Below, in pieces: positions 42,202 through 62,678 of a DNA stretch of 64,000 nt. The notes under the pieces were generated by a model. It was not told the origin of the DNA. It did not search any database and saw only the letters and a program-made list of their open reading frames with translations. The stretch is from IMG/VR virus record IMGVR_UViG_3300045988_136451. One strand, written 5' to 3'. A program made the position numbers and the translations under genes. Each line of letters starts with the position of its first letter. Within the stretch, counting starts at the first letter, position 1. This stretch comes from a virus.

Positions 42202-42211
42202 CTTTCTCTCC

Positions 42212-46100: not shown

Positions 46101-46227
46101 AGACGTACAGGAACCCGTCGCCGCGATCATCGTACTCGAACGAGCCGAGGGCCTTGCGCGCGGCGACGCGCCCGGTCGTCCCGAAGCTCGTTCCGATTAT
46201 GGAGCAGTTGGAGAACTTAACGAACAT
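43114..46227 (-). CDS. Head morphogenesis protein (possible prohead protease / minor capsid protein) with LAGLIDADG intein, zinc ribbon and long acidic C-terminus
   Basis: Hint block CFVPGTHITMSNGTVKNIEDVAVGDEVITHLG. LAGLIDADG motifs LLGYYLAEGNF and LVEAYLNGDGHY. C-terminal ...EGYAVHN followed by Cys. CPICGSPDFDGIYCDVC zinc ribbon. Confidence 0.45.
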   Translation of the reverse strand: MFVKFSNCSIIGTSFGTTGRVAARKALGSFEYDDRGDGFLYVSVRACTADVPNLNFDMLPHEELKTAYRTFVGKPVYVNHSNTNLDRARGYIIDAVYHDEDPEDRWIEILMEMDEVTFPRLCALIRSGDIDTVSMGLNCFVPGTHITMSNGTVKNIEDVAVGDEVITHLGNVRRVADTMASLHSGIVYEVRSYGSKRPMVLTDEHPVWVRRMKNDAMRTIRESRIAHDGDNAEHSCICGRSFKSHRSLAAHVREAAKNGVDGHGYQPDFEGWVIASDLEVGDYVLDPKPVRTSRGGNRAFARLLGYYLAEGNFGYDKKLNIGVGAPAFVEWTFCDSETDYHDEVMALCSELGYKAVGPYIKRGAATIRCNSPELANMMLEHGGKYSHGKRISDEAMRWDDECLGDLVEAYLNGDGHYIDDRRVAYSTVSKDLAYQIFSICTQLGIKMSKPIARSSERISDIAKHTRYVSYGDRSEEQKKMMMCYVDEQGTWRRIDRIRVLPYTGMVYNFEVEEDHSYIAEGYAVHNCETTTCSVCGNVAEQPAQFCNHIKQKGREFDGVLAFEICNGIAFFEESWVYDPADPTATVQALEAEAKTAKVAAKEREFGPDNFYIETEADFAEVEDRPQGAPDYTSESGSEYWYFPDGVVRGSDHWGYGVGGCNWYLDGINRQMYGGELYGYARWSDFENTENYDCIFDKKVNDVVESYVGSGADGTLADHMFGTMQWRHTDMNDEVYDEARTLLRVTAAEKSKSDYAYTPTDNPSDWKLDISDKDHAAAAKAALGKGYRGNKVEIPSDDRQAVIDKVNAACRRFGIEPFGEGKEGSADDASGFANDFIEEYDSLGLSFDSYDELAAEVWSAVEEAADADEEFYADALQEIAGHYKLADNMVNKLRIPEEVDMQNSDRVCPICGSPDFDGIYCDVCEYVEYAEGFGDIDTEEAQENKELRKDLDDAEEPDAEVTEDAEEEYAEDTDDARIAARLFDVPDDQGTVLAALADAGYAEGIDYDLASGGKIASYSASLDELMRGGVIGKESRWL
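44650..45813 (-). mobile_element. Intein (about 388 aa) within 43114..46227
   Basis: Boundaries MGLN|C ... AVHN|C, hand-counted. Lower GC than the flanks. Confidence 0.5.
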
Positions 46228-46813
46228 GCTTGCCCTTCTTCCTCGCCTTATACGCCATGTAGCAGTTCACGATCAAAGCGGCCTCCATGAGCGCCACCAG
46301 AGCCATTTTGACGACGAGAAGCGCGTTCGGGCCCGGCAGGCCTATGAACGCGCTGTCGGCCAGCGTCACGACCGCGAGAACGCCCATTATGAGCGCTATG
46401 AGCATCTTGTCGTTCGCATAGTAGCGGATTGCCATGACGGCGAAGCCCGCGAAGACGACGAACGCCGACGGCATGACGACCGAGTGCGGCGCTCGCGTGA
46501 AGAAGCCGCCGATGACCGACGACATGAAGACGAACACGACGAGCAGCAGCATGTCTATCGAACGCCAGCTCTTGTCGGTCGCCCCCGCGAACATGAAGAC
46601 ACCCGCCATGCCGTAGGCTGCGAGCGAGAAGAAGCGGGCGAACATGTCGTGCTCGCCCGCCGATGCGATGATCGAGGCGGAGAGCGCCATCGAGGCGAGC
46701 GCTGCGGCCATGTAGGGCATGCTCTTGTCCCCGCACGTCCTGACGCTCAACGCGGACGCGATGACGAATATCGGAAAAGTCGCTCCGAAGATCGAGAGGA
46801 CAGCGGCGTTCAT
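46217..46813 (-). CDS. Polytopic membrane protein (about 198 aa from MNAAVLSIFG)
   Basis: About 5-6 hydrophobic helices. ATGA overlap with the upstream membrane protein gene. Confidence 0.4.
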   Translation of the reverse strand: MNAAVLSIFGATFPIFVIASALSVRTCGDKSMPYMAAALASMALSASIIASAGEHDMFARFFSLAAYGMAGVFMFAGATDKSWRSIDMLLLVVFVFMSSVIGGFFTRAPHSVVMPSAFVVFAGFAVMAIRYYANDKMLIALIMGVLAVVTLADSAFIGLPGPNALLVVKMALVALMEAALIVNCYMAYKARKKGKHVR

Positions 46814-47178
46814 CGCTTTTCGCCTCCCTTCGAGGAGCTTGCTTCGTCCTTCGAGCCTCCGAACTTCGATTCGAGCGAGTTTATGATCTGCTCCAATATC
46901 ATGGGGGCTATGATGGCCGAAGAGAAGGCCGTCCAGATCGACTGATCGACTATCACGCCGACCGCGCCGCCCATTATCAGCGACGCTACGAAGCCGAGAT
47001 GGACGTACACGCCTCCGTCGTCCTTGCGCTCGATGCGCAGCGGAAGCTCCAAGCAGCCGTCGTTCACGCAGATGTCGCGGACGAACGCACCGCAAGCACC
47101 GGCGAGGAACAGGAACAAAGCCTGCTCGAAGCTGGTTATCTCGCTCATGTGCACGAGCGATGCGAAAAGTTCGTCCAC
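46810..47178 (-). CDS. Small membrane protein, 122 aa, two predicted TM helices, charged C-terminus
   Basis: Hydrophobic segments ALFLFLAGACGAFV and LGFVASLIMGGAVGVIV. Confidence 0.4.
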   Translation of the reverse strand: MDELFASLVHMSEITSFEQALFLFLAGACGAFVRDICVNDGCLELPLRIERKDDGGVYVHLGFVASLIMGGAVGVIVDQSIWTAFSSAIIAPMILEQIINSLESKFGGSKDEASSSKGGEKR

Positions 47179-47193
47179 GCTACGCTCCCTTCT

Positions 47194-48180
47194 TTAGTAA
47201 AGGGAGGCATCTTCTCCCTTGTAGCGGTCTCTGTTGCGAGCCAACTGGCCGGTGCTCTCCTCTTGGAGTTCCTTCTGCTCCTGCTGGCTGAATATCCTTG
47301 TGGCGCTTTTATTGTATCCGCTGTTGCTTTTCGCCGCCACTGGCAACGCGACGCGCCGAGCGCCCGCAGACACGCACATGACACCGCCGTACTCGTGGAC
47401 GCGCATCGCCTCGCGGATGCCGCGCTGCATCGTCTCGGGGGCCGATTCGTCGAGGAACGCGACGGCCTCGCGCCTCTCGCCCTCGTTGGTCGAGTACAGG
47501 CGCGCGACCATGGCGTTGAACACCTCGTCCTCGAAGCAGTCGGGGCACAGTTCGTGCAGCCCATCGCGCTCGCCGTATTTCCCGCAGTGCGAGCAGAAGC
47601 CCGTCTCGTTGTAAACCATGCTTGCCGTCCTATCTCCGAAGAACTCTTTCCTCGCCCTCGCGTTGCTCACCATGAGCGTCGCGAGCGCGTGGCTGCACAT
47701 CCTGCCGCCCCAGCCGCTCCTGCTGCTGTGGCCCGGAGCGCCGTCGTAGTAGCTGCCCCACTTGCAATCGCACAGGTAGCCCTGAACCCATCCGCCGTAG
47801 TTAGGCGACTTGTTCCATCCCTTGCGCGCGAGTATCACGCCGTAGGGGCCTCCGCGATAGACGGGGAAGCGCCCCGCCACCTGCGCGCTCGTGACGACGG
47901 CATCGACCTCCTCGCTGTCGTCGCGGGTGATGACAACGCCGCCCGTGGCGGCTATGGCCTCGGCCTTCGCCTTCACGTCCGCCCATGCCGCGCGCTTCTC
48001 CAACATCGACGTTTTCCGCATGTCGTCTGCCACCGCGAGCGGGCAGTGCAGCAGGCGCTCGTCGGAGCGTTCGTAGGAGCATGCGCCAAGCTCGACGCTC
48101 GCCGTCCTCTCCGACACGTCAACCCTCTGCACGCACCGCCCGCAGTCCCAGAACATGCAGTCGCATCCGCTACTCATCGC
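47194..48180 (-). CDS. SWIM zinc-finger protein (about 328 aa)
   Basis: CDCKWGSYYDGAPGHSSRSGWGGRMCSHALATL fits the SWIM CxCx(n)CxH motif. Confidence 0.45.
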   Translation of the reverse strand, partial: AMSSGCDCMFWDCGRCVQRVDVSERTASVELGACSYERSDERLLHCPLAVADDMRKTSMLEKRAAWADVKAKAEAIAATGGVVITRDDSEEVDAVVTSAQVAGRFPVYRGGPYGVILARKGWNKSPNYGGWVQGYLCDCKWGSYYDGAPGHSSRSGWGGRMCSHALATLMVSNARARKEFFGDRTASMVYNETGFCSHCGKYGERDGLHELCPDCFEDEVFNAMVARLYSTNEGERREAVAFLDESAPETMQRGIREAMRVHEYGGVMCVSAGARRVALPVAAKSNSGYNKSATRIFSQQEQKELQEESTGQLARNRDRYKGEDASLY

Positions 48181-51100
48181 CGCCGTCCTCCGCGACCAAC
48201 GGCACGCCCTGCTCCACCAGAGATGCCGTTCGCTTGCTGCGGACGCTTGCGCGGTGGTTGGCGACCACGGAGCGCTTCGTGCTCCCAACGTCCTTCATGG
48301 CGCTTCTGGCGGCCTCGTGCGGGATGTCTCCGCCCTTCGCCGCGAACGTGCCCGGAGCGTCCATGTCCTCGCGCCTCTCGTCCGACACGTCGGGTCTTGC
48401 GCCGTCTCCGGGGGCGTACTCCTCCTCGTCCACCACGTCGGTCACCGCTTCGAGCTGCGATACCGCCTCCTCTTCGGGCGACTTCCCGAACGGGCCGTCC
48501 TTGCCGTCGTCCTCCTTCGGGGCTATCTTCTTCAGAAGCTCCTGCTCTTCCAACGGCGCTATGCCGTCCTTCATGAACTTCACCGTGTCGGGAGGAACGG
48601 GAACGCCCTTCTCGACGCACGCGCGGAAGATCGCGGCGTGCTCCTCCGCGCGCTGCACGGCATCGTGTATGGCATCCTGCGATGCCTGCTCCGCCGTCGC
48701 ACGGTAGTCGATGTCGGTTCCCATGAAGAACGCCTGACGGGCGATTGGCACGCCCTGCTTCTGCAACTGCATGAGGAAGTCGCGCGTCTTCTCCGTCGTG
48801 TTGAAGTTGATCGTCTCCATGCGCAGCTCCGGATAGAGCAGCTTGGGAACCTCCTTGATGACGTAGCCGCCCTCTCCGTCGTTGACCGATTCGTCCCACA
48901 CCTCGCGCCACTCGGTCTTGTCGATCTTGACCCCGCCTATGATGTCGTAGTCGTAGATGCCGTTCGCCTCGGCGACGAACGCCGCGCGGCGGTTGTACAG
49001 CTCGCACAGGCACTTCTGGTAGCTGCGGAGCATCTGGCTCGCCAGCTCGAACTCCATGGCCGACGTTGCGTACGGGCCGCTCGCAGGCTTCAAGATCGAC
49101 GATGAGAGGCCCCACGCCATGAACAGGCGGTCGTCGTACATGTCGATGTCGTTCTTGAAGTTCGCCATCTTGTCGCCGCGTATGACCTCCTGCACGTTCA
49201 CAAACTGGTTTGTGACCAAGGCTCGGAAGTCGGACGAAAGCGCCTCGTCGAGACGCGTTCGGAAGGTAGCTATGGCGTTCGGAGACGGGATGTAGGGGCT
49301 TCCGTCGGCAAGGTTGCCTCCGAGCGAGAACAAGAGGAGCGGCGCGTACATGCGGTCTGCCGTCGCGAGCATGGCCGACTGAAGGCGCTCCTCCAACCGC
49401 AGGGTGTTCCAAGCGCGCAGGGCGACCGGCGTTCCGTGAAGGTCTCGCACGCTGTCCTTGTTCGCGAGGTGGACGCATCGGTCTGGCGATATGAGGATGT
49501 CCTTTCCGGTCTTCACCAGCTCGGCGAACTCCGGGTTCTCCTCCTCGAAGATGCGCCCTGCAACGTCCATGCTGTTGACGATGCGCTTCATGTCCTCGTC
49601 GGGAACGAACTTCAAGATGTTCTCCGATGAGAACGGCACCCTTATTATCTCCATCTGGCGCGGGTCTAAAAGCTCCTCGCCCGTCCATATGCCCAAGCTG
49701 TCGTCCCACACGCCGTTGGCGAACACCTCTCCGTACTGCCAGTACTCGCGGCCAACGTCGATCAGGAAGTTCTCGTAGTCCAAGTCCTCGAAGAAAATCT
49801 GCTCGAAGAAGTCTTTCACGTCCTTGTTCTTGCATTCGAGGTGCGCGCCTGCGGTGGGGTACCTCGCGTACACCTCCAAGCAGTTGTGAGACGCGAAGCC
49901 GTCGGCTAGATAGCTATGGTCTTCATCGACCTCCAAGTTGTACACGGCCCCCTCGAACCTCTCGACGGACACCGACTTCACCGCGAAGTGCATGTAGTCG
50001 CCGCTTAGGAAGCCGAGGGAGACGCGCGAGTACGGGCGCTTCTCGCGCTCGTGCCGTATACCATTGTCGTCGCGAAAAGAGCATGCCGATGCCCCGCTGT
50101 ACCTCACAGCGCCGAGCGACGTTTGCACGATGGACGCTTTCTCATTGTCCGCGACGAACCTCTCGAACATGCAGTTCCGAGGCCATTTCACGCACACCTC
50201 GTAACCGCACCTGATCGAAATAGCGGCAAGGCCGTTCACAAGATCGCGGGAGACGCTGTTCATCACGATCTCGTTCTTCCCGTTGCAGCCGTCTCCACGG
50301 AAGAACCCGACAAGCAGCTGACGCTGCTTCTCGATTGGAAGCTCCTGAACCCATAGCGGTATGCGCTTCGAGTGAGCGCCGCACAAAAACTCATCGCGCA
50401 GCCATTGGGCGAGCGGCGCGGAGTTCACATCGACGACCCACATGTTCCTGCGCCCGTCTCTGCGAGCCTTCGCCTCGATGCCGAGGCATTCGCGGCATAT
50501 CCTCTTAACGTCATCAACGTACTCGACCTCATGCGCGCCGAAGCAGATGCTCGTCCTGTTGCCCGATGCCGCTCCGTCAGAGAGATGGTATCCCACGAAC
50601 CTGAAGAAGTCTGCATTCGCCTTGATCTCCAACCGCATCGAACGCTTCGACTTCGTTGGGGGGACGACCTTGCCCGTCTTCGTCTTGTACGAACCCTGAA
50701 CCCATTCGACATCGCGCTTCGCGACGATACGCTCGACATCCTCGACGCTTTTGCCGACCGGCATCACAAGATAGTCTCCGATGCGAACCTCGCTCGCCGA
50801 AACCCACTTGTACTCGCCCTCCGGCAGCGCTCCGTCAAGGTACGTCGTGCCGCCCGTGCGTCTGAACACGTACAGGTTGTGGTCTTCGGTGCAGCGCAGC
50901 TCCGAATCGCTCTGATGCACCTTGAACGAATACATGTCCCCGTCATACCCGAACGCCATTGTTTCGAGAACCTTGCGGTAGCGCCCAGCATGCGTCTTTA
51001 CCTCGTCTCCGACCGCCACGTCCTCGATGGGCACGAGAGACCCTTCGACATCGACGAGCGTCCCGGCGGGGTGGCACGCGCGCATGACGGGGTTGGTCTT

Positions 51101-51391
51101 CATGATGACCTCAACGCCGTCGAGGAGGTTCTTCCTCGCCTCCTCGTTGTGGTCGATGTCCATGTAGTTGTTGTAGCCGTAGCCTCTAAGGCCGATGCGC
51201 TTCTGGCGCGCCGGGTCGAATATGCGCGGTATGGCGAACTCCGCCCCCGGCTCCCCGAACGCCGCCGTGTGCTCGAACTTCGAGCTTGCCGGTGCCGCCT
51301 GCTCAACGAGCACGCGAAGATGGGACGCGTCGTGCGCCTGCACCTGACGGGTGGGGAGGTTGACTATCGCCTTCTTGCCTTTAGATTCCAT
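48170..51391 (-). CDS. Portal protein interrupted by a LAGLIDADG intein
   Basis: Extein has portal-like features (size, acidic C-terminus, position after terminase). Intein CHPAGTLVDVEGSLVPIEDVAVGDEV... ; FVGYHLSDGAAS and LLVGFFRGDGCNG; ...DGFASHN followed by Cys. Confidence 0.55.
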   Translation of the reverse strand: MESKGKKAIVNLPTRQVQAHDASHLRVLVEQAAPASSKFEHTAAFGEPGAEFAIPRIFDPARQKRIGLRGYGYNNYMDIDHNEEARKNLLDGVEVIMKTNPVMRACHPAGTLVDVEGSLVPIEDVAVGDEVKTHAGRYRKVLETMAFGYDGDMYSFKVHQSDSELRCTEDHNLYVFRRTGGTTYLDGALPEGEYKWVSASEVRIGDYLVMPVGKSVEDVERIVAKRDVEWVQGSYKTKTGKVVPPTKSKRSMRLEIKANADFFRFVGYHLSDGAASGNRTSICFGAHEVEYVDDVKRICRECLGIEAKARRDGRRNMWVVDVNSAPLAQWLRDEFLCGAHSKRIPLWVQELPIEKQRQLLVGFFRGDGCNGKNEIVMNSVSRDLVNGLAAISIRCGYEVCVKWPRNCMFERFVADNEKASIVQTSLGAVRYSGASACSFRDDNGIRHEREKRPYSRVSLGFLSGDYMHFAVKSVSVERFEGAVYNLEVDEDHSYLADGFASHNCLEVYARYPTAGAHLECKNKDVKDFFEQIFFEDLDYENFLIDVGREYWQYGEVFANGVWDDSLGIWTGEELLDPRQMEIIRVPFSSENILKFVPDEDMKRIVNSMDVAGRIFEEENPEFAELVKTGKDILISPDRCVHLANKDSVRDLHGTPVALRAWNTLRLEERLQSAMLATADRMYAPLLLFSLGGNLADGSPYIPSPNAIATFRTRLDEALSSDFRALVTNQFVNVQEVIRGDKMANFKNDIDMYDDRLFMAWGLSSSILKPASGPYATSAMEFELASQMLRSYQKCLCELYNRRAAFVAEANGIYDYDIIGGVKIDKTEWREVWDESVNDGEGGYVIKEVPKLLYPELRMETINFNTTEKTRDFLMQLQKQGVPIARQAFFMGTDIDYRATAEQASQDAIHDAVQRAEEHAAIFRACVEKGVPVPPDTVKFMKDGIAPLEEQELLKKIAPKEDDGKDGPFGKSPEEEAVSQLEAVTDVVDEEEYAPGDGARPDVSDERREDMDAPGTFAAKGGDIPHEAARSAMKDVGSTKRSVVANHRASVRSKRTASLVEQGVPLVAEDGGDE
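49883..51076 (-). mobile_element. Intein (about 398 aa) within the portal gene
   Basis: Boundaries MRA|C ... SHN|C, hand-counted. Confidence 0.55.
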
Positions 51392-53741
51392 GGACTTCGC
51401 ATCCTATCTCCTTGTAGCTGCTGCCGTCGCTTAGTATGTACGGCTTCACGCTGTACTCGACCTCGCTGTTCATCAGCGTGGCGCTCGACTGCTCCAACCG
51501 CAGCGCGTTCTTTCCGCTAATTATACAGTCTTCAACGGTGAACCCGTCGCAATCGTAGAGGTACACGCCGGTGTCCACCGCCCGGTAAGAGTAGTAGACG
51601 GTGTTGGAAAGCTCGGAGACGGTGCCCTGCTTGTCTATCGCCCCTATGCGGAACGCGTTGTCCTTCGAGGAAAGGGCGGTCTCCATGAACACGACGGTGC
51701 CGTAGCTCGCCTTGCCCTTGCGCCAATCCGTCGCCGCCAGACCGTTCACGTAGATTCGGTACTTGTAGTACGTTCCGTCGTCCGTCCACGGCGCGCCCTC
51801 GCTCGCCGGGTTGAAGGCGAGTATCGCCTTCGAGCTGTCGGTTGACGAGCGCGTGACCGTGAGCAGCACCGGCGGCTTCACGTGCGGCGGGTTGTACTGG
51901 TACTCCACGCGCCCCGGCACGCTGGCCCAGTCGTTGTACGCCGTGACCGTGAAGGTCGTCAGCTCGACCTCGAACCAATCGACGGCCAGCGTGTAGTCGG
52001 TCTGCCCGCTCACGTATTGGACGGTGAACGAGCGCGAGTTCACGTTGTTGGTTATCACGAACCGCGTGGGGGCAACGTCGATGATCGCGGAGAACGACAG
52101 CACCAGCTTCGTTATCTCCCGATCTTCGTAGTTGTTGTCCTGACGCGCGCGCACCCAGTTGAAGCCCATGGGAGGGCTTTTCAGCGTGAGGGTGGCGCTG
52201 TAGGGCGAGTATCGACCGGACACGGAGCTGTAGACGCGCGCCCTCACGTAATAGGTGAGGTACTGCGTCGTGAGCGAGCCGTTGAACGATGTCCACGTGC
52301 TGTTGTTCGTCGAGTATTCGAGCTGCACGACCGAGCTGTAGGTGTTTCCAGCGTCGTTCTTCGACGATGCGGACAGCGACGTGCCGGAGCGCGAGCCTGT
52401 CGGGGTCGCCGGGGCGTAGAGGGTGCCGTACCCCGTGACGCTGCCGGAGTTCGCCGTGCCGCCCGTGCCGTACGCCTGCACGTACACGCTGCCGGTCTTG
52501 CCCTTGATCGAGGAGGGCCAGCTGATCGAATAAGATGCGCCGGAAACCGCGCCCGAAGCGCTCGCCACCGTCTTGACCAGCGAGCCGCCAGCGTAGATTC
52601 TGAACCCCGTTCGCGGCTTCGACGCGGTTGGCGCGTTCGCCGAGAACGTGACGGTCGCCGTCGTGTCGGTGACCGACGAGAGCGAAAGGCCGTAGGGAGC
52701 GTCGGGCGCTACCGCGCCGTTCGCCAGCGAGACCGTCGATATGCTTCCCGCGAAGCCGTCGAGGTGCGCGTACGTCGCGTAGCTCGCTTTGTCGGAGCGC
52801 TTCCAAGCGGCGTAGCTCGACACCTGCACGAGGCTGAACTTCTTCGTCTCGTAGCCGCCCGTGGTGCTCCAAATGCTCGCGTTGCTGTAGGTCGCAACGC
52901 CGGGTTCCAGCTTCGCAAGCAGCTTCGCGCTGCCAGCGTTCAGCTTGCCGTTCGAGGAGACGGACACCGTTCCCTCGTAGATGTAGGTGTAGTAATCGGT
53001 GAGCGACTGGGTGTTCTTCCACGTGAACGTAGCCCCGAACGTGGTGTTCGCCTTGACCGAGAAGCCGGTGGGGGCGCTCGGCCTCGTCAGGAGCGCAACG
53101 GTCTGCGACAGCTTCCAAGAGCCTGTCTTGCCGTACGTCGCTATCCTTCGAGAGCTGACGTTGCCGTTCGCGCTCACGCTGTTCGTCCACGGGTTGGCGC
53201 TGATCTGCGAGCCAGACCATCCCGGAGATGCCGCGTCGCTGCCGAACACGGCAACGTCAACGTTCGTCTGCGTGGCGGGTGCCTGCGCGGTCGAATGCGT
53301 GTCGTACGCAAGGCTCTCGCTCGTGCCGTTCGACGACGTGTACGACGTGATCGTCGGGGTCGCCTGCGTCGCCCAAGTAGCGTCGAAGTAAGTCCTGAAG
53401 TCGGGAATATCGACGGAGCCTGTCACGTTCGACGAGCCGGAAACGCCGCCGTCGCAGAACGTCGTGTAGTAGTCGGCATCGTAGCCGGGGTACAGCGTCA
53501 CGCTCCACGTCTGGCTCCCGCTGCCAGCCTCGGTGTTGCTCCACGAGAACCGATGGGAGTTCCCGCCGATGGTGACGTTCACGTACCTCTCGTCGGAGTA
53601 GAGCCACGCGTTGTAGGTCTCGTAGTAGGCCGTGACCCTGAACGTGACTGCGGTGCCGGAGCGGGACGTGACCGACGTATCGACGTAGAAGCGAACGCCC
53701 CATCCTCCCTTGTTGTACGCAGACCAGCCGGAGTTAGCCAT
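51381..53741 (-). CDS. Ser/Thr-rich protein with FN3-like repeats, 786 aa (candidate head fibre or adhesin)
   Basis: Repeated APTGFSVKANTTFGATFTWKN / PDAPYGLSLSSVTDTTATVTFSANAPT blocks typical of fibronectin type III domains. Confidence 0.4.
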   Translation of the reverse strand: MANSGWSAYNKGGWGVRFYVDTSVTSRSGTAVTFRVTAYYETYNAWLYSDERYVNVTIGGNSHRFSWSNTEAGSGSQTWSVTLYPGYDADYYTTFCDGGVSGSSNVTGSVDIPDFRTYFDATWATQATPTITSYTSSNGTSESLAYDTHSTAQAPATQTNVDVAVFGSDAASPGWSGSQISANPWTNSVSANGNVSSRRIATYGKTGSWKLSQTVALLTRPSAPTGFSVKANTTFGATFTWKNTQSLTDYYTYIYEGTVSVSSNGKLNAGSAKLLAKLEPGVATYSNASIWSTTGGYETKKFSLVQVSSYAAWKRSDKASYATYAHLDGFAGSISTVSLANGAVAPDAPYGLSLSSVTDTTATVTFSANAPTASKPRTGFRIYAGGSLVKTVASASGAVSGASYSISWPSSIKGKTGSVYVQAYGTGGTANSGSVTGYGTLYAPATPTGSRSGTSLSASSKNDAGNTYSSVVQLEYSTNNSTWTSFNGSLTTQYLTYYVRARVYSSVSGRYSPYSATLTLKSPPMGFNWVRARQDNNYEDREITKLVLSFSAIIDVAPTRFVITNNVNSRSFTVQYVSGQTDYTLAVDWFEVELTTFTVTAYNDWASVPGRVEYQYNPPHVKPPVLLTVTRSSTDSSKAILAFNPASEGAPWTDDGTYYKYRIYVNGLAATDWRKGKASYGTVVFMETALSSKDNAFRIGAIDKQGTVSELSNTVYYSYRAVDTGVYLYDCDGFTVEDCIISGKNALRLEQSSATLMNSEVEYSVKPYILSDGSSYKEIGCEVHGI

Positions 53742-54201
53742 GGTTTCCCCTCAACGTCATGCGGTATATGCCGGAGCGCGAGCCGCTTACCGACAGTATG
53801 GCGGAATCTTCCCCGGCCTTCTGCTTCAGAACGGTGTGCTCCTTGCTCTGACCTTCGAGCGACACGTTCCCGCTCACGACGATGCGCGTCACGACGTACA
53901 CGCCGATGGAGAACTCGACTATCCCGCCGCCGAATCCCTCAACGTAGTCGATGGCCGACTGTATCGCCAGCGTGTCGTCGGCTATGCCGTCGCCCTTCGC
54001 GCCGAAGTCGGCGACGGACGCGTGGCGAAGCCCCGATTCGTACGCCGAAACGCTTATGGGGAGGGCGGACAGGTCGTTGCCCATCGCTATCGACAGGTAG
54101 TCGTCGTACGGCATCGACACCGAGGCGTTCGGGGCTATCGACTTGTCCCCGACCTGAATGCGGTAGTTCGCCAAGTTGCGTATTTCCATGAAACGAAGCA
54201 C
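53734..54201 (-). CDS. Pectate-lyase-fold (Pectate_lyase_3-like) N-terminal module, 155 aa; may be fused to 51381..53741 if a frameshift is present
   Basis: SVADFGAKGDGIADDTLAIQSAIDYVEGFGGGIVEFSIGVYVV is the classic N-terminal motif of right-handed beta-helix depolymerases. Its stop overlaps the next ATG by 8 nt. Confidence 0.4.
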   Translation of the reverse strand: MLRFMEIRNLANYRIQVGDKSIAPNASVSMPYDDYLSIAMGNDLSALPISVSAYESGLRHASVADFGAKGDGIADDTLAIQSAIDYVEGFGGGIVEFSIGVYVVTRIVVSGNVSLEGQSKEHTVLKQKAGEDSAILSVSGSRSGIYRMTLRGNHG

Positions 54202-54211
54202 TGGCCGCCCT

Positions 54212-54240
54212 TTGCCCTTCTCTCGCTTTTACCCGATAAT
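54212..54240 (+). promoter_or_regulatory. Sigma70-like promoter TTGCCC-17-GATAAT driving the plus-strand DUF192 gene
   Basis: -35 at 54212..54217, 17-nt spacer, -10 at 54235..54240, about 45 nt upstream of the RBS. Confidence 0.45.
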
Positions 54241-54286
54241 TGTACTCAAAACAAGGTCGCTCGGATAGCGGCCCGGAAGGAGCGCC

Positions 54287-54634
54287 ATGAAGTACAGGGT
54301 TGACGATATATTCGCAACGCCGAGCGAGCAGGCGCGCGGCCTCATGTTCAGGGAGGACTATCCGGAGGACGCTTGCGCCGCGTTCCTCTACCACGACGAG
54401 CCGCGCGTGCTGTCGTTCCACGGGCGCAACTGCCTGTTCCCGATCATCGCGGCGTTCTTCAGGAAGGACTTGACGCTCGACTGCTGGCACGTCCTCGAAC
54501 CCGACGGGGAACCGGCCTCGTCGGTCGGCGAATGCTCCCTCGTCGTCGAGGTCAAGGCGACCGAGCGCAACATCGCGGTCGTCTCGCAGTGCGTGAGGGC
54601 CGCAATCGACAAGAACTGCATATCCCTCCTGTAA
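54287..54634 (+). CDS. DUF192-family protein, 115 aa; the only convincing plus-strand gene (moron)
   Basis: RBS ggaaggag. QARGLMFRE...LFPIIAAFF...LDCWHV matches the DUF192 (COG1430) signature. Confidence 0.5.
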   Translation: MKYRVDDIFATPSEQARGLMFREDYPEDACAAFLYHDEPRVLSFHGRNCLFPIIAAFFRKDLTLDCWHVLEPDGEPASSVGECSLVVEVKATERNIAVVSQCVRAAIDKNCISLL

Positions 54635-54642
54635 AACGAAAG

Positions 54643-54662
54643 AGGCCCCTCACGGGGCCTCT
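54643..54662. terminator. Bidirectional rho-independent terminator hairpin
   Basis: gaggcccctcacggggcctc. T-rich run follows on the minus strand (terminates 54678..55055). Also closes the plus-strand DUF192 gene. Confidence 0.5.
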
Positions 54663-54677
54663 CGCTGCCTCTTACGG

Positions 54678-55055
54678 CTATTCTTTCTTCGCGTGCTTCG
54701 CCTCGCCAACGTCCTCGGCCTCGCCGCCGATGGGCAGCTCCGCCTTGTCGTCGCTTGTGAAGTGAAAGAACTTGTCGAGCCATTCGTCTGTAACGCCAAT
54801 CGCCTTGAACAGGTTGTAAGCCGCCTGAACTCCGCCCACCACGGCGGCCACCCAGAGCACGAACGTCTCCGGTGTCGGCGCTCCGCTGATGAAGGCGGTG
54901 AAAACGCCAGCGGCCAGCGATATGACCACGGCTATCGTCCAGTTGACCTTCTTAGACCAACCGCCGCGCTTGACGAGCTGAACGACATAGGGCAGGAAAA
55001 GCGAGAAGAACACGGCAGCGATAGCCGGAACCCACGCCTCGAAACCCTCGAACAT
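54678..55055 (-). CDS. Holin-like three-TM membrane protein, 125 aa
   Basis: Three hydrophobic helices and a highly charged C-terminus (AKHAKKE). Confidence 0.35.
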   Translation of the reverse strand: MFEGFEAWVPAIAAVFFSLFLPYVVQLVKRGGWSKKVNWTIAVVISLAAGVFTAFISGAPTPETFVLWVAAVVGGVQAAYNLFKAIGVTDEWLDKFFHFTSDDKAELPIGGEAEDVGEAKHAKKE

Positions 55056-55125
55056 AGCGTCTCCTCTCTTCGGGGTCTTTCCGCCCCGCCTCGCGGGGCC
55101 TTCGGGACATTATACGCCGAAGCCG

Positions 55126-58113
55126 CTACAGGCCGCCACACCACGGCCTCCCGGCCCATCCGTCGGTGAGGCCCATCTGCCTCTCGAACTCCATGGAGCG
55201 CTCGAAGTAGAACTGCTCCTTCGCAAGGTTCTCCCTCATGCCGACCTCCGGCATGTAGCCGCCCTGCGCCGCGCCGGTGATGCGCAGCAGGGTTCCCTCT
55301 CCAAGCGCCTCGACCTGATCTGACAGGAGGTTCACGCACACCGTCGAAACGCAGTCCGCCATGTCGTTGTGACAGTTTCCGGAAATGAGAATCTTGCCGT
55401 TCCTGCGCGTGACAAGCGTTCCATTTTGAACCTCGAAGCAATACACCATGCCGTCGTATCGGCTTATATCGACCTTACTTCTCTCAACCGCCGATTCTTT
55501 GCGACCGAGAAGGCATATTTCGTGAAATTCCCCGCCCGACGGCGTTTTGCAATCATAGTATGACGTTGCGGTTCCGTTTGTCATAAATACGGCCTGCATC
55601 GCATCGGCAACGCCCTTGTCCTTTATCCCCGCTCTGATGTAAGCGTTCTTGTCCTTGCTAAAGGTGCCGTCTCCATGCAGGAAGCCATCTATGAAGCAGT
55701 CCTGCTCCTTCTTGCCCCATTCCACGAAAATCTCCGAAGGTATTGCAAGGTCACCAGCTCCATCGAAAAACCTTTCCAGCGTCCAGTCTGCAAGCCATTT
55801 GCTATACACCTTGTATTCGTATAGCACTTTCCTCTGATATCCGCTTTTCTTGCACTCTCGTTTAGACCACTCGAAGCCAGACCCATCAAGAGCCGCCTCG
55901 ATATACACGATTCCATCTTCCTTCGACTGCGAGATTATAAAAACTCCATCACGCCGAAGCGCAATCTTTCCGCCATCCGCCAACCAGAAACCGACGATCC
56001 TTGCAAAGCAGCCGAAATCAACTCCGCTCGGAAGATCGACCAAAGCACCTGCATTCCCGTTTTCACCACACCTTGGGATGAAGAACTTAGACCGATTGGC
56101 CAAGATGCCATCAATAGGGGACTTCATAAGCTCAGTCATCTTCCCGTGGTTGCACAGCCTGTACAGCATCCTATGATTCGGTGTCACCTTGAAATCGACA
56201 AGACGGTTCGAGTATCCGTACATTTCGCCATGGTACTCGTATGCGATTTTCCTGATCGGCTGCTGCCACTCGATCTTGCCGTCCTTTGAATACGTTGCGA
56301 CGCGTCTGCCCATGACGGCATCTTTGAACAGAACCCATCCATCCTCCGTCAAAACCTCCGTTGCGGCATCGTGACATACGTCGCCCGTCTCCGGGTGGTC
56401 TACCTTCTTGCCGTTCTTCAGGATGAGGAACTTCAGCTCCTTCTCCAACATGCACACCTCGCCGAGACCCAGTATGTCGTCTATCACGAACGGGGCGTGA
56501 ACCCATCCTTGGTAGAGGGCCTGCTTGAACCGCTCCCAGCGCTTCATGTTCTTCTTCTCGGTGGCGGTGTCCTCCTCGATGACGACCGAGCCGTTGAGGA
56601 ACGTCCCCATCGTCCTCTCCAAGTTCAGCGTGTCGATGAGCGACGCGCTCTGGTACTGGTCGAACGTGCAGCGGACGATGTTGAACAGCTTCAGGTACTC
56701 GATGATCTGCTTCTGCACGACCGTGTAGTTGATGCGCCGAACGCCGTGCTCGTCGGGAGGGAAGTCCTTCGCTTGGAAAATCTTCTGCACGTCGATGAAG
56801 GCGTGGAAGAAGCCGTCCTCGCACAGCTCCTTGTGGCCGATTGCTATGCAGAAGTTGTCGTTCACGCGCCCAGCGTCGCAGTGCATGACGTACTGGCGGT
56901 CGATGCGCCCGTGCCTAGCCGGGACGTTCGCGTTGCCCTGAAGGTCTGGGTACGCGTTGAACATCTTCTCAACCATGTCGGGGTTCAGGTACGCGTCCTG
57001 CGACTTGGCGAACTGCGCGCGGTACTCAACCCTGAACTTCTCCGGGTCGCGCTCCTCCTCCATGGCGAACGATTCGTCCTGCTCCGGAGGAAGCAGCAGG
57101 GGCTTGCCTATCGCCGGTACGTACTGGCCGTCCGTGAACAGCTCCCACGACGGCGCTTGCATGCAGAACATGTCGGGGTGCTTCGAGCTGCCGTCCTCGT
57201 CGCGCTCGAAGGCGTTCTTGAACAGCTTGTAGAACATGCCCACCTCCGACACGGGGGTGGACGGGACGACTATCATGGCCTCCTTGCCGACCTGACGCAG
57301 CGACGGCGTTAGGGCCTTCCAGATCGCCTCCGACGATGCCTTCAGGCCGTCGTCGCGACCGTAGGCGAACTCGTCGTACGCCTGTATGATCGAGGCGTTG
57401 CCTCGCGCGGAATCGGGGTTGGCGGCCTTCGGCTCGACGAGAAGCGATGCCCTGCGCCTTATGTTCTTCCTGATGCCCGATTCGATCTGCCGCATCTCCT
57501 CGCGCTCGTTGAACACCTTGTCCGCAGCCGTTTCCAGCTTTATCGCGGTCTCGGACAGCGAGCTAGTCCACGGGTCGAACCACGAGCACTCTATGATGGT
57601 GTTCAGGATGTCGAGGTACAGCGCGGACTTCGCTTGGCTGAACGTCGTCGCCATGACATCGACGTGCATCTCCTTGCCGTCCGGCAGGTGGAGGACGCGC
57701 TGGGGGTTGCCGAGCGAGAGCATCTGGGCCAGCTTGTAGTCGATGAGGTGCGACACGGTGAAGCCCTTTGAGCCGCGTCGCCCGAGGCAGAAGATGTTCT
57801 CGCGGAAGTGCTTGTATCCGCGCTTCTTCAGCCACTCGATGCGGTCGAAGATGTCGAGCGGAATCTTCACCGGGCCGCCGTTGCGCGTGCTCTCGCGCCA
57901 CCCTTCTATCACTTGGAAGTCGTACCGGTTCATCTGGTCGATCTCCAAGAAGATGATCTTCATGAGCGTCTTCTGGCGGGGGTACAGCGGTGTCCATTGC
58001 AGGGACGGCGTGTACATGTCGTAGAAGTCGCAGATCGGCGGGAGCCGTTCGAGCGCCAGCTTCGGGGCCGCCAGCGACGAGAAGACATCTATGCCGTGCT
58101 TGATCTCGCCCAT
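55126..58113 (-). CDS. Terminase large subunit interrupted by a LAGLIDADG intein
   Basis: Position after a small coupled gene and before portal. Extein of about 660 aa. Intein CHDAATEVLTEDG... with FWLADGG and FIDGFLHGDGT motifs, ending ...ILISGN followed by Cys. Confidence 0.55.
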   Translation of the reverse strand: MGEIKHGIDVFSSLAAPKLALERLPPICDFYDMYTPSLQWTPLYPRQKTLMKIIFLEIDQMNRYDFQVIEGWRESTRNGGPVKIPLDIFDRIEWLKKRGYKHFRENIFCLGRRGSKGFTVSHLIDYKLAQMLSLGNPQRVLHLPDGKEMHVDVMATTFSQAKSALYLDILNTIIECSWFDPWTSSLSETAIKLETAADKVFNEREEMRQIESGIRKNIRRRASLLVEPKAANPDSARGNASIIQAYDEFAYGRDDGLKASSEAIWKALTPSLRQVGKEAMIVVPSTPVSEVGMFYKLFKNAFERDEDGSSKHPDMFCMQAPSWELFTDGQYVPAIGKPLLLPPEQDESFAMEEERDPEKFRVEYRAQFAKSQDAYLNPDMVEKMFNAYPDLQGNANVPARHGRIDRQYVMHCDAGRVNDNFCIAIGHKELCEDGFFHAFIDVQKIFQAKDFPPDEHGVRRINYTVVQKQIIEYLKLFNIVRCTFDQYQSASLIDTLNLERTMGTFLNGSVVIEEDTATEKKNMKRWERFKQALYQGWVHAPFVIDDILGLGEVCMLEKELKFLILKNGKKVDHPETGDVCHDAATEVLTEDGWVLFKDAVMGRRVATYSKDGKIEWQQPIRKIAYEYHGEMYGYSNRLVDFKVTPNHRMLYRLCNHGKMTELMKSPIDGILANRSKFFIPRCGENGNAGALVDLPSGVDFGCFARIVGFWLADGGKIALRRDGVFIISQSKEDGIVYIEAALDGSGFEWSKRECKKSGYQRKVLYEYKVYSKWLADWTLERFFDGAGDLAIPSEIFVEWGKKEQDCFIDGFLHGDGTFSKDKNAYIRAGIKDKGVADAMQAVFMTNGTATSYYDCKTPSGGEFHEICLLGRKESAVERSKVDISRYDGMVYCFEVQNGTLVTRRNGKILISGNCHNDMADCVSTVCVNLLSDQVEALGEGTLLRITGAAQGGYMPEVGMRENLAKEQFYFERSMEFERQMGLTDGWAGRPWCGGL
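55375..56376 (-). mobile_element. Intein (about 334 aa) within the large terminase gene
   Basis: Boundaries GDV|C ... SGN|C, hand-counted. Unusual GN rather than HN terminus. Confidence 0.45.
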
Positions 58114-58114
58114 G

Positions 58115-58519
58115 CTACTGAAGCAGGTTGGTGTCCCAACCCATGTCCTTCATCTGCTTCGAGCTGTAGCGCTGCGCGTCGTACGCCTTGCGCTCGATGT
58201 CCACGCCCTCGTCGAGGTACGCCTGCTGGCGCTTGTCGAGGCGGCCCGTGACCGTCACGACCGGGTAGAAGGTCTCGGTCTCCCTGCCGGGGACGATGAG
58301 GCCGGCGACGGCCACCGGCTCCTTCTTCGATTCTATCCCTATGTAGCCGTCGAGGCCGAGCCTGTCGTGGAGGTAGGCGAGCGACCACTTCAGCATGTCG
58401 GCAACCAAGTCGATCTTCTGCTTGCGGTCGTCGCAGGTGCGGCCTTCGTACCGCGCGGAGAAGTCCCGCTTGAACTGCTCTATGCGCCTCTGGTCGTCGG
58501 AGTTGATTCCCACGTTCGC
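58115..58519 (-). CDS. Putative terminase small subunit (about 134 aa from MANVGINSDD)
   Basis: Translationally coupled immediately upstream of the large terminase. No diagnostic motif. Confidence 0.3.
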   Translation of the reverse strand, partial: ANVGINSDDQRRIEQFKRDFSARYEGRTCDDRKQKIDLVADMLKWSLAYLHDRLGLDGYIGIESKKEPVAVAGLIVPGRETETFYPVVTVTGRLDKRQQAYLDEGVDIERKAYDAQRYSSKQMKDMGWDTNLLQ

Positions 58520-58568
58520 CATTCTGTCCTCCAAAAGTGAAACGGCGCTCCCGCGCCAAGTCGATTCC

Positions 58569-58793
58569 CTATGACGGGCCGTTGCCCATGTACCGCTCCG
58601 TCCAGTCGCCTATCTCGTCGTCGCGGTTGGCGTAGCCCCCGCAGTTGCCGGAGTTCGGTTCGACGATCAGCTCCGGAACGTCGGCATCGCAGGCGCAGCC
58701 GAAGAAGCAGACGGCGAAGTTGTTCACGCCGTCTATCCTCCTCCCGTGGAAGCACGAGAAGCACGACTGTTTCCTGTTGCCCGCCTTTTTCAA
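58569..58793 (-). CDS. Small Cys-rich protein, 74 aa, TTG start
   Basis: RBS aaggag 4 nt before TTG. CFSCFH...CFFGCAC...CGG cysteine cluster. Confidence 0.25.
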   Translation of the reverse strand: MKKAGNRKQSCFSCFHGRRIDGVNNFAVCFFGCACDADVPELIVEPNSGNCGGYANRDDEIGDWTERYMGNGPS

Positions 58794-58861
58794 ACCGCTC
58801 CTTCAAGAAAGCCCCGGCACGGATGCCGGGGCATAGTATCGCACAGAACAGCGCGCCGCCG

Positions 58862-59953
58862 CTACACCTCGTCTATCAGGATGGCGTCGCAGTTGTTGCA
58901 TCGGTGCTCCTTGTGAGACTTCACCACGACGTAACCGGCGAGGCGCTGTAGCTTGCGCACGCTGTTGGGCTTGATCTCGGCGATGAAGCAGCTCGACGTG
59001 ATGAGGTCGATAAGCTCGCCGGTCGTCCCGTGCTCGCCCGCCGACGTGCCGAGGCGGTATTCGTCGAAGCACGTGAGCGACGTTGCGCGCACGCGGGCGG
59101 GCAGTCCGTGCTCGGAGTACATGTGCATGATGCGCTTGCGCATGCGCGGTATCTCCTCGCCGTAGACCTCCCTCATGGTGTACGCGAGGCCTTCCAAGCT
59201 GTCAACGGCGTTCTCGACCTTCTCGCCGATGACGCGGAGGATGTCGTCGTACGATAGGTCGCGGATGTTGATCGGGTCTAGGTAGTCGTCGCACTCGATG
59301 ATGCCGCAGCTCGCCTCGTTGAGGAAGATCGGGGACACCTCCGGCGCTTGGAACTTGCGCTTGTGTACGAAGCGGATGCCAGCCATGTAGGTCTCCCCCA
59401 CGTCGTAGCGCTTGTCGGGGATGAGGATGTCGATCTGGGTGTGCCCCAGCGAGCTGTCGGTTCGGATGATCTGGGCGCTTCCGCCGACCTTCTCGTAGAG
59501 CACCTTCAGGCAGTCCACGAAGTCGATGTTCTGGCGCTTCGCCTCGCCGAACTCGACGAGGTTGGGGGTCGTCTCGTCGCCGGAGCGGCGCGTTCCGAGC
59601 GCGAACTTCCTGTCGCCCTCCTTCTTCAGCCAGTAGTTGATGTTGTCGGCCCGCATGTCAGGCCCCAAGCGCACGAGGTACGGCACGGGAATCTTCAGCA
59701 GCGCGCCGATCTTGTCGTAGCACGCGATGTGCCCGACCAGATCAAGCTTCTCCTCGCCCATGGCGTTCTTGCCCACGAGGTACATGTCCTCGTTCTTCAC
59801 GCGCATCTCGCTCCCGAGCGCTTCGGAGCGCTCGACCGCATCGTAGGCCTTCTTGGCGCGCTCGTAGGCCTGCCTGACCGTGATGATCTCCTTGCCAGCC
59901 TCGTTCACGTACTCCTCTATCGTCTTGCCGAGGTCTGTGTATGCGTCTGCCAT
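58862..59953 (-). CDS. Hypothetical protein, 363 aa
   Basis: ORF with a downstream hairpin (58816..58840) and T-tract. No family recognised with confidence. Confidence 0.35.
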   Translation of the reverse strand: MADAYTDLGKTIEEYVNEAGKEIITVRQAYERAKKAYDAVERSEALGSEMRVKNEDMYLVGKNAMGEEKLDLVGHIACYDKIGALLKIPVPYLVRLGPDMRADNINYWLKKEGDRKFALGTRRSGDETTPNLVEFGEAKRQNIDFVDCLKVLYEKVGGSAQIIRTDSSLGHTQIDILIPDKRYDVGETYMAGIRFVHKRKFQAPEVSPIFLNEASCGIIECDDYLDPINIRDLSYDDILRVIGEKVENAVDSLEGLAYTMREVYGEEIPRMRKRIMHMYSEHGLPARVRATSLTCFDEYRLGTSAGEHGTTGELIDLITSSCFIAEIKPNSVRKLQRLAGYVVVKSHKEHRCNNCDAILIDEV

Positions 59954-59957
59954 CTCC

Positions 59958-60392
59958 CTAGCCTTCCTTCGATTGTCTCTCTATGGTCTCGACGGCGACA
60001 GCCGCCTTCCTCGCGGAGTTCATCATGTCGGCGTAAAGCCCTCCGCGCGAAACGCCCATGCTCTCCGGCGTGAGCTGCGCCACCACGTTGACCGTCCCGA
60101 CGGGGACGAGCAGGCAGCTAACGCCAGCGCCCACCATCGCGTCGCTTATCGCGCCGACGGCCTCTTGGCCGATGTCCGCGCTCACCTCGACGACGTAGGT
60201 GGGCCTGCCTATGTCGTTCTGAAGCTCCATGACGCGCTCGACGTACTCCGCCGCCGCCCCGACGGCATCGAACCCGGCCTTGTCGGCGACGTACTCCGCA
60301 AGCGCCGCCCTGTCCCACACGACGCATCCGCCCTGCGGCTCCCGCCGTGGTGCCTCGTCGCGCTCCTCGCGCCTCCTACGGAACAAGCCCAT
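59958..60392 (-). CDS. Hypothetical protein, 144 aa
   Basis: ORF in the early-region operon. Confidence 0.3.
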   Translation of the reverse strand: MGLFRRRREERDEAPRREPQGGCVVWDRAALAEYVADKAGFDAVGAAAEYVERVMELQNDIGRPTYVVEVSADIGQEAVGAISDAMVGAGVSCLLVPVGTVNVVAQLTPESMGVSRGGLYADMMNSARKAAVAVETIERQSKEG

Positions 60393-60699
60393 GCGGCACC
60401 TCGCCTTCTATCTCCTTGAACATGTCGAGCGCCATGGAGAGCGCCTTGCGCGACGGGTTGCCGAACTCGTCGCCGTCGGGAACCGCCCAAGCTGGCGCGG
60501 ACATGTCGATAGGCTCGCACCGCCTCTTGCACGGGTACCACTTCCGGTCGATGCGGACGCTGAAGGTGAACTCCCATTCGGCCCCCAAGTCATCGTAGCC
60601 GATCAGGATGCCGTCCGCGCCGTCCGTCTTGACGCAGTTGCGCCACCCGTTCACCAGAGAGCGCTCGACGAGCGCGGAAAACCTCTCGAAGTCGTTCAT
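60376..60699 (-). CDS. Hypothetical protein, 107 aa
   Basis: ORF overlapping its neighbours (operon). Confidence 0.3.
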   Translation of the reverse strand: MNDFERFSALVERSLVNGWRNCVKTDGADGILIGYDDLGAEWEFTFSVRIDRKWYPCKRRCEPIDMSAPAWAVPDGDEFGNPSRKALSMALDMFKEIEGEVPHGLVP

Positions 60700-61660: not shown

Positions 61661-61683
61661 GAGCTTCCATCTCCTTTGAACGC

Positions 61684-61699
61684 TCGATTATTTAATCGA
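61684..61699. repeat. Copy of TCGATTATTTAATCGA (intergenic, 24 bp upstream of the Lsr2-like gene start)
   Basis: Perfect palindrome variant. Confidence 0.5.
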
Positions 61700-61706
61700 C
61701 ATTGTA

Positions 61707-62528: not shown

Positions 62529-62570
62529 TGCACACCCCATAACAAAAAAAAAGAACCCGTTGCATGTCTT

Positions 62571-62637: not shown

Positions 62638-62678
62638 CAAGACCCCATTGTATACCCAAGCGCCCAGAGATTACAAGA

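Follow-up and report, generated by a model that had tools for sequence, protein, structure and literature searches.

We report that a 64,000-nucleotide stretch of viral DNA, the IMG/VR record IMGVR_UViG_3300045988_136451 (the window, below), very probably contains four virion-morphogenesis genes with independent full-length inteins, each combining a HINT splicing domain with a two-motif LAGLIDADG endonuclease domain, as well as an intergenic NUMOD4-HNH gene. The four host genes encode the large terminase subunit (TerL), the portal protein, a head-maturation-protease-like protein, and a small conserved protein of the virion module from family phrog_2819. All of them and the HNH gene are located on the minus strand, to which the coordinates of genes, inteins, and motifs refer. 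Both splicing and homing are what we infer from the sequences. The intein boundaries were checked by comparison with intein-free homologues, and a chance origin of the insertions is excluded because the empty sites are exact and in-frame. An inventory of four inteins and one HNH gene had been given in a preliminary description of the window, and it is borne out by in-frame empty sites and by matches to NUMOD4 and HNH_3. The same holds for its statement that both portal and TerL contain a full-length intein with a homing endonuclease domain, here of the two-motif LAGLIDADG type, the respective open reading frames (ORFs) 48170..51391 and 55126..58113 being as described. No fifth intein was found by phmmer in all six-frame ORFs of the window with the four inteins as queries.

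The window derives from a myovirus-type Eggerthella lenta phage, a near-identical relative of LE2-3 (MW679026; 111,961 bp; host E. lenta DSM 2243). LE2-3 is the sole megablast match of the region 48000..58200 among GenBank phages (99.7% identity, 90% query coverage, in two pieces). When the entire window is aligned with the complete LE2-3 genome by local blastn, the two are collinear, with positions 1..64000 corresponding to LE2-3 positions 92018..28046 on the reverse strand, at 97.3–99.7% identity (mostly 99.4–99.7%) and with few indels. Two of these indels are the TerL intein (about 55372..56377) and the HNH gene (4892..5473), both missing from LE2-3. No intein of LE2-3 is annotated in the GenBank record.

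The TerL precursor gene (55126..58113), assigned from the ORF list and phrog_2, encodes 995 amino acids, with a predicted spliced product of 661 amino acids. The spliced extein matches phrog_2 "terminase large subunit" (E = 8e-23) and is 32–35% identical to TerL of Myrna, cluster C1 mycobacteriophages, and Gordonia and Rhodococcus phages. The intein, assigned to class 1 and carrying a LAGLIDADG domain, comprises residues 580–913 (55375..56376; 334 amino acids), as delimited by the empty-site alignment. Base by base, it is an exact in-frame insertion of 1002 nucleotides relative to two intein-free alleles, LE23_62 of LE2-3 (labelled "terminase"; 661 amino acids) and the TerL gene of IMGVR_UViG_3300045988_116257. 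The junction reads GDV|[CHDAAT...ISGN]|CHNDMADC in the window and GDV|THNDMADC in the intein-free alleles, and the GN|C boundary had been placed correctly in the preliminary description. At the nucleotide level, GAC GTA | TGT CAC GAT ... GGA AAC | TGT CAC AAC GAC corresponds to GAC GTT ACC CAC AAC GAC in LE2-3, whose empty site holds GGCGACGTTACCCACAACGAC. Thus, the +1 Cys codon TGT (55372..55374) stands in place of the Thr codon ACC, and the −1 Val codon GTA (56377..56379) in place of GTT.

Apart from these four junction nucleotides, no difference lies within about 60 nucleotides in the C-extein direction or within more than 1 kb in the N-extein direction, and the TerL genes of the window and LE2-3 differ at only three other positions. 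The IMGVR_UViG_3300045988_116257 gene is more divergent (19–22 substitutions) and likewise has GTT ACC. Among more distant proteins, a relative with 69% identity reads GPV|THNDMADC and one with 45% identity GPW|QHNDMADC, and the residue equivalent to +1 is Thr in Myrna and RedWattleHog and Gln in JayJay. The +1 Cys of the window TerL therefore appears to have come in together with the intein. Elsewhere in the gene, codon 992 (55135..55137) shows a private Gly-to-Cys replacement in the window (RPWCGGL); LE2-3, the IMG/VR relative, and both Logan contigs with this gene read RPWGGGL.

The TerL intein has Cys1, block B TPNH, block F VYCFEV, and the C-terminal ISGN (Asn334), followed by Cys+1. Its first LAGLIDADG motif (55969..56007; FARIVGFWLADGG) ends in WLADGG with the acidic residue Asp134, and the second (55666..55695) is FIDGFLHGDG with Asp236. 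The GC content at third codon positions (GC3) is 0.605 in the intein and 0.88–0.90 in the TerL exteins. An AlphaFold2 model built from the family alignment (predicted local distance difference test, pLDDT, 83.5; predicted TM-score, pTM, 0.86) has the TliVMA intein 7qsu as its top Foldseek match (E = 1e-14, TM 0.62), followed by PI-SceI, 2cw7 (intein homing endonuclease II/PI-PkoII), and PI-PfuI, and I-DmoI matches the middle domain of the model. In this prediction, the element is a HINT fold flanking an inserted endonuclease domain.

The insertion site is situated 82 residues from the C-terminus of TerL, and two Asp residues, invariant in five homologues, follow it at distances of 3 and 6 residues. 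We infer that this Asp pair is the third acidic motif in the nuclease domain of the terminase. None of 51 IMG/VR TerL relatives or loci contains an intein at site 579|580. Several of these relatives (L052, L062, L065, L067) have intein-size insertions at about residue 288–302 and at about residue 487, the latter adjoining a conserved DQ motif. Hence, there are at least three intein sites in the TerL family of the window. The inteins at about 288–302 presumably are of the Pham3880-g type. The Pham3880-g site had also been considered for the TerL intein of the window and was rejected, as the inteins of relatives are situated at about 288–302 and about 487 and none at 579|580.

Apart from its own alleles, the TerL intein has no close relative in the databases that could be its donor (at most 31% identity). 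The search retrieved a fragment with 99% identity, present in two public runs, together with about 60 inteins sharing 22–31% identity with the query. The host proteins of the latter include papain-type peptidases, with insertion at the catalytic Cys, as well as ThyX, GTP cyclohydrolase I, and a GpA-type terminase, among others. In the family alignment of 62 sequences, Cys1 is present in 60/60, the block B Thr-x-x-His in 61/61, Cys at block F position 4 in 55/59, and an Arg-Arg pair in 57–58/59 sequences. The penultimate residue is Gly in 57 of 59 sequences and Ser in the remaining two, the terminal Asn is conserved in 58/59, and +1 is Cys or Ser in 55/59. The acidic residues of the LAGLIDADG motifs are also retained (Asp or Glu in 54/56 for motif 1, Asp in 55/55 for motif 2).

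Members of this lineage in isolated phages include the corynephage P1201 Thy1 intein (...VWSGN|S), the nicotinamide phosphoribosyltransferase intein of Staphylococcus phage Stab23 from Twortvirinae (...VSGN|T), and the ribonucleotide reductase intein of Tequintavirus (T5-like) phages (...VCGN|S). The motifs of the TerL intein are shared by inteins from SHSML-45, P1201, and Stab23. The Bethlehem gp51 intein is a distant homologue, aligned with the TerL intein from Cys1 to ...LTGN|S (E = 3e-12). In terms of these known systems, the inteins of Bethlehem gp51 (RDF/phosphoesterase) and P1201 Thy1 resemble the TerL intein from end to end at 21–27% identity, including Cys1, Thr-x-x-His, the block F Cys (VWCLRV, VYCATV, and VYCFEV, respectively), the ending ...[ST]GN|[CS], and the LAGLIDADG domain. 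The TerL intein differs from both in the host protein, the site, and Gly at the block F His position. It would thus belong to a phage-borne class 1 lineage, together with the P1201 Thy1, Stab23, Tequintavirus, and Bethlehem gp51 inteins, whose conserved state would be a penultimate Gly, Cys at block F position 4, and the Arg-Arg pair.

Several observations weigh against parts of this interpretation. Firstly, curated profiles do not recognize the TerL intein: Pfam Intein_splicing yields no match, and TIGR01445 scores 14.9 bits at a cut-off of 24.5. LAGLIDADG_3 also remains under its cut-off (20.1 versus 22.5 bits), and phmmer against PDB gave nothing relevant. As the profile scores are sub-threshold, the intein call is based on the empty-site alleles, the family alignment, and the predicted structure. 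Secondly, the intein has neither the penultimate His nor the block F His, Gly being present at the latter position, where about one-third of the family has His; block G usually (not obligatorily) has His where this intein has Gly333. Thirdly, the TerL alignment profile matched no solved structure in PDB, which bears on the placement of the nuclease motif. Fourthly, one of the intein-bearing alleles from other datasets is interrupted. In the run ERR2235316, TerL carries the intein with junctions identical to those of the window, but the contig (Logan ERR2235316_68809) has a one-nucleotide deletion in a T5 run at TerL nucleotide 2171 (about 55943 in the window), within the endonuclease domain, that splits the ORF into products of 441 and 260 amino acids; this is either an assembly error or, if real, a dead allele. 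The run SRR25491945 contains the C-terminal part of the intein with the same C-junction. Finally, the direction of the TerL polymorphism, gain or loss, follows from parsimony only.

The latter point leaves room for an opposite scenario, in which the intein was precisely lost by LE2-3 and the IMG/VR relative through recombination with an empty allele. Intein-free and intein-bearing alleles do coexist in the population, and the empty phrog_2819 allele described below, with its substituted site and non-nucleophilic Val+1, shows that empty and possibly resistant alleles circulate. Still, we consider this scenario unlikely. GTT ACC is common to LE2-3 and the divergent IMGVR_UViG_3300045988_116257, and Thr at +1 is also found in the homologues with 69% and 32–35% identity. 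In addition, the window and LE2-3 genes show just three differences beyond the junction, the GC3 of the intein is far from ameliorated, and the site is empty in all 51 IMG/VR relatives. Recent gain of the TerL intein by the window allele remains the preferred reading.

The ending GN, instead of the usual HN, had been taken in the preliminary description as a possible sign of weakened splicing. In that case the TerL intein might be slow or conditional, and maturation of the terminase delayed or regulated. The absence of both His residues that usually assist Asn cyclisation would agree with this, as would the lack of matches to canonical C-terminal splicing profiles. However, Gly is retained throughout the family across unrelated host proteins, unlike what is seen in decay. 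Moreover, the homologous Bethlehem gp51 intein was completely spliced at time zero, and restoring His by the G316H replacement slowed it, with more than 5 h required for 50% splicing (PMC5050341). In phage class 1 inteins generally, the penultimate His is poorly conserved and often replaced by Gly, Lys, or Ser (PMC5050341; 10.1101/2025.01.02.630785). TerL is also expected to be essential, and no fewer than three independent datasets contain the allele with the intein. Weakened splicing is therefore unsupported, given the conservation of Gly and the behavior of Bethlehem gp51, and we regard it as improbable; judged from the alignment and this analogy, GN appears to be the conserved working state of the lineage rather than decay or a defect.

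Even less probable, in our view, is that the block F Cys beside Cys1, the Arg-Arg pair, and the penultimate Gly reflect a distinct catalysis, i.e., a class 1/class 3 hybrid with an acyl relay through the block F Cys, or Arg taking the role of His in Asn cyclisation; the same low rank is given to the separate idea that the four inteins, placed in successive morphogenesis proteins (terminase, portal, protease, and a protein of the head/neck region), form a post-translational gate on virion assembly instead of being purely selfish. As a side observation, an ENA metagenome protein of 444 amino acids (P0037) contains a 26%-identical intein of the GN lineage at ...NEGLD|C..., in a protein with PF20454, the GpA-type terminase nuclease domain. 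The NEGLD|C site resembles HNDMADC just downstream of the TerL site, a possible hint of site switching between terminase types.

The portal precursor gene (48170..51391; 1073 amino acids, 675 after splicing; phrog_2833, E = 1e-78) encodes a protein 100% identical to LE23_67 of LE2-3. Its class 1 LAGLIDADG intein comprises residues 106–503 (49883..51076; 398 amino acids). The 70%-identical intein-free relative in IMGVR_UViG_3300045988_115635 reads TNPVMRA|CLEVYSRYP with an exact gap of 398 residues, and Myrna gp89 aligns ungapped across the insertion point. The intein starts with CHPAG, has CTEDH (block B TEDH) and LAGLIDADG motifs HLSDGA and FRGDG, and ends in Asn398 as VYNLEVDEDHSYLADGFASHN|C (SHN), with the penultimate His present. 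Its C-terminal part scores 35.8 bits with TIGR01443 (intein_Cterm; cut-off 15.6), Pfam Intein_splicing is near threshold, LAGLIDADG_3 is above the Pfam cut-off (28.2 bits), and PI-PkoII (2cw7) is a sequence match in PDB. A common site with the portal intein of cluster C1 mycobacteriophages was considered and rejected, as the intein of the C1 phage JayJay lies 13 residues upstream.

The head-maturation-protease-like precursor (43114..46227; 1037 amino acids) corresponds to LE23_71, labelled "tRNA synthetase" in LE2-3; domain searches found no tRNA-synthetase domain in it, and the spliced extein matches phrog_2774 (E = 5e-49) and phrog_18299 "head maturation protease" (E = 2e-25). The class 1 LAGLIDADG intein (44650..45813; 388 amino acids) has an exact junction relative to the intein-free homologue in IMGVR_UViG_3300045988_115635, SMGLN|CQSTTC. 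For this intein as well as that of portal, the junctions are exactly those placed in the preliminary description. The intein starts with CFVPG, has LTDEH (block B TDEH) and the motifs YLAEGN and LNGDG, and ends in Asn388 as VYNFEVEEDHSYIAEGYAVHN|C (VHN), again with the penultimate His. The matches of the precursor to Pfam Hom_end_hint, Intein_splicing, and Hint_2 include stretches ending exactly at residues 139 and 526. TIGR01443 scores 28.1 bits (cut-off 15.6), Pfam Intein_splicing is near threshold, LAGLIDADG_3 is below its cut-off, and GC3 is 0.518. Of the class 1 inteins, those of portal and the protease-like protein exceed the TIGR01443 cut-off, and that of TerL has only the sub-threshold TIGR01445 match.

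The fourth intein resides in the phrog_2819 gene (31016..32635), whose product has 539 amino acids, or 181 after splicing; the phrog_2819 match bridges the splice junction. The intein itself had been recognized previously, with limits 31280..32284 and a supposed N-terminal Cys118. Nine intein-free homologues of 181–198 amino acids, one of them 98% identical, read LYGK|[TV][VI]PM, and the junctions of the window protein are LYGK|AQPLSEP and ...|TVPM. Hence, the intein starts at residue 95, 69 nucleotides upstream in the gene, and extends over 31280..32353 (residues 95–452; 358 amino acids), with Ala1 at the start of AQPLSEPVLTPDG. Phage homologues of this intein begin at amino acid 93. Ala1 is accompanied by block B TKEHLW, block F CRCILVD, and block G IVTHN followed by Thr+1; the LAGLIDADG motifs are MIGDG and MDTDG, and LAGLIDADG_3 is above its cut-off at 29.9 bits.

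The best PDB sequence matches are DnaB inteins, in register from residue 4: 6bs8, which we take to be a class 3 intein, and 6rix/6riy. The latter presumably correspond to the class 3 M. chimaera intein described in PMC7664689. In the alignments with 6bs8 and 6rix, the Trp, the Cys of block F, and Thr-His-Asn coincide. Class 3 inteins are characterized by the triplet of Trp at block B position 12, Cys at block F position 4, and Thr at block G position 5 (PMC5050341). With residue 1 being neither Cys, Ser, nor Thr and with the Trp-Cys-Thr triplet present, the phrog_2819 intein is assigned to class 3 by these motifs, rather than to the inteins that start with Cys1. It shares with the DnaB class 3 inteins of mycobacteria (6bs8, 6rix/6riy) and of Bethlehem the non-nucleophilic residue 1, Trp-Cys-Thr, and Thr-His-Asn followed by a nucleophile. 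It differs in having a full LAGLIDADG domain, whereas the solved class 3 examples are mini-inteins, and in its host, a small virion-module protein, actinophage class 3 inteins being reported in only four host proteins.

An intein-free phrog_2819 allele 98% identical to that of the window, with Val at +1, is present in the run ERR10101914 (Logan ERR10101914_333149). Nine of its 14 substitutions, mostly synonymous, fall within positions −4 to +24 nucleotides of the site, and the empty site may be resistant to the endonuclease and unable to support splicing. In LE2-3, the phrog_2819 gene is LE23_82, labelled "PhoH family protein". No P-loop was found in the extein, and the name could derive from the intein, one of whose phage relatives lies in a PhoH-annotated gene.

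The HNH homing endonuclease gene (4891..5469; 192 amino acids; GC3 0.565) matches NUMOD4 (59.8 bits, cut-off 23.4) and HNH_3 (35.7 bits, cut-off 24.8) in Pfam. It is absent from LE2-3, where a 10-nucleotide intergenic spacer occupies the place of the 582-nucleotide segment 4892..5473, positioned exactly between a stop codon and the next start codon. Relative to LE2-3, seven substitutions are located 12–24 nucleotides upstream and five 14–21 nucleotides downstream, so that 12 substitutions fall within 24 nucleotides of the insertion, compared with eight in the remaining roughly 4 kb examined. The gene is, in other words, an optional intergenic insertion whose flanks bear the signature of marker co-conversion. 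Free-standing NUMOD4 HNH homing endonucleases occur in T4-like and SPO1-like phages. The gene resembles this type in its NUMOD4 and HNH_3 domains, in its location between genes, in being absent from a near-identical genome, and in the substitutions clustered on its flanks, and differs in its setting between two tail-region genes of an Eggerthella phage. The substitution clusters at the insertion sites point to recent homing.

The five elements have a foreign base composition. The GC3 values of the four inteins are 0.52, 0.61, 0.73, and 0.78, compared with 0.86–0.90 in all exteins. Pairwise identity among the inteins does not exceed 26%: the TerL and portal inteins are 24% identical (E = 3e-6), and the class 3 intein is similar to the other three in the endonuclease domain only. 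The closest database relatives are different for each intein. Given this low identity and the differing splicing classes and GC3, the four inteins are independent invasions, not intragenomic copies.

The opposite possibility, that the inteins are paralogous copies spread within this genome, had been proposed for checking, and it is contradicted by the same comparison. The portal and protease-like inteins are each other's best match (26% identity over the full length, 90 bits, versus 61–76 bits for other isolated phages), but this identity is far too low for recent copying, the TerL–portal pair and the class 3 intein are no closer, and the splicing classes, GC3, and nearest relatives all disagree, which makes paralogous spread most improbable. 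The mutual best match is compatible with a very old ectopic move between these two genes. The least credible alternative of all, namely that the TerL insertion is a retained domain or a dead intein kept in the mature terminase, can draw on the absence of a profile-level intein call, but is opposed by the intact nucleophiles and block B Thr-x-x-His, the accompanying Thr-to-Cys change at +1, the predicted intein-endonuclease fold, and the expectation that 334 residues so near two invariant Asp would block function.

Under the reading with four independent inteins, each precursor would be translated whole, the intein would excise itself, and the exteins would be ligated into a functional protein. 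The TerL, portal, and protease-like inteins would follow the class 1 pathway, with a thioester at Cys1, transfer to Cys+1, and Asn cyclisation; in the class 3 intein, the block F Cys would attack the N-terminal junction because residue 1 is Ala. Predicted junction peptides of the spliced exteins include TNPVMRACLEVYAR, SLYGKTVPMVIGGQLVFR, and TGDVCHNDMADCV. The portal, protease-like, and class 3 inteins are all present in LE2-3, a plaque-forming isolate; given its viability and the expected essentiality of the host genes, these three inteins presumably must splice. All four inteins have two LAGLIDADG motifs, each ending in an acidic residue and Gly. In a mixed infection, the endonuclease would cut the empty allele, and recombinational repair would copy the element with a few flanking nucleotides; for TerL, such homing would have turned the +1 Thr codon into Cys.

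Many features of this set have precedents: inteins in TerL and portal of phages, phage inteins of class 3, penultimate residues other than His, and actinophages rich in inteins are all documented. Surveys of actinobacteriophages list 784 inteins in 19 host genes, among them portal, TerL, minor capsid, tape measure, and baseplate, and subcluster C1 mycobacteriophages have seven intein-bearing genes (PMC5050341; 10.1101/2025.01.02.630785). The load of homing elements in the window had been called unusually high; four inteins and an HNH gene are indeed there, but, with such intein-rich phages known, the term is relative. As in myco- and actinobacteriophages, where TerL is the commonest phage host, portal inteins are known, and LAGLIDADG endonucleases cleave the sister-phage allele that lacks the intein, both class 1 and class 3 are represented in the window (PMC5050341; 10.1101/2025.01.02.630785). 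The TerL and portal exteins of the window share 30–35% identity with their counterparts in cluster C, the group of phages richest in inteins. In contrast to the actinobacteriophage set, the host is Eggerthella (Coriobacteriia), outside PhagesDB. The seven mycobacteriophage TerL intein sites are all in the ATPase domain (PMC5050341), whereas that of the window (V579|T580) is in the C-terminal, putative nuclease region; the window portal site lies downstream of the C1 one; and the head-protease-like and phrog_2819 proteins are not among the 19 listed host genes (10.1101/2025.01.02.630785). What is new is so in detail only: the phage group, the C-terminal TerL site, the protease-like and phrog_2819 hosts, and the natural pairs of filled and empty alleles.

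Outside the intein-related loci, the window and LE2-3 show further structural differences at 20463..20513, 42176, and 62115..62535. LE2-3 is longer by about 835 nucleotides in repeated tail-gene modules and by 238 nucleotides at the start of the "antirestriction protein" gene, and a 420-nucleotide segment of the window stands in place of 826 nucleotides of LE2-3. Between the terminase and portal genes, a Ser/Thr-rich ORF of 786 amino acids (51381..53741, minus strand), labelled "immunoglobulin-like fold protein" in LE2-3 and without a Pfam match, is followed by a small ORF with the pectate-lyase fold (53734..54201), an unusual content for this interval.

The present understanding of inteins is unaltered by these findings. 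At the same time, the inteins analyzed here are the first described in phages of Eggerthella (Coriobacteriia), and the intein catalogue gains two host proteins, the head-maturation-protease-like protein and phrog_2819, as well as a C-terminal TerL site. The GenBank names "tRNA synthetase" and "PhoH family protein" in LE2-3 look wrong. Inteins of the TerL lineage are probably under-annotated, since standard intein profiles miss the TerL intein. Finally, for the TerL intein, the class 3 intein, and the HNH gene, natural pairs of filled and empty alleles exceed 99% identity and are ready substrates for studies of homing and splicing in a phage of a gut anaerobe.

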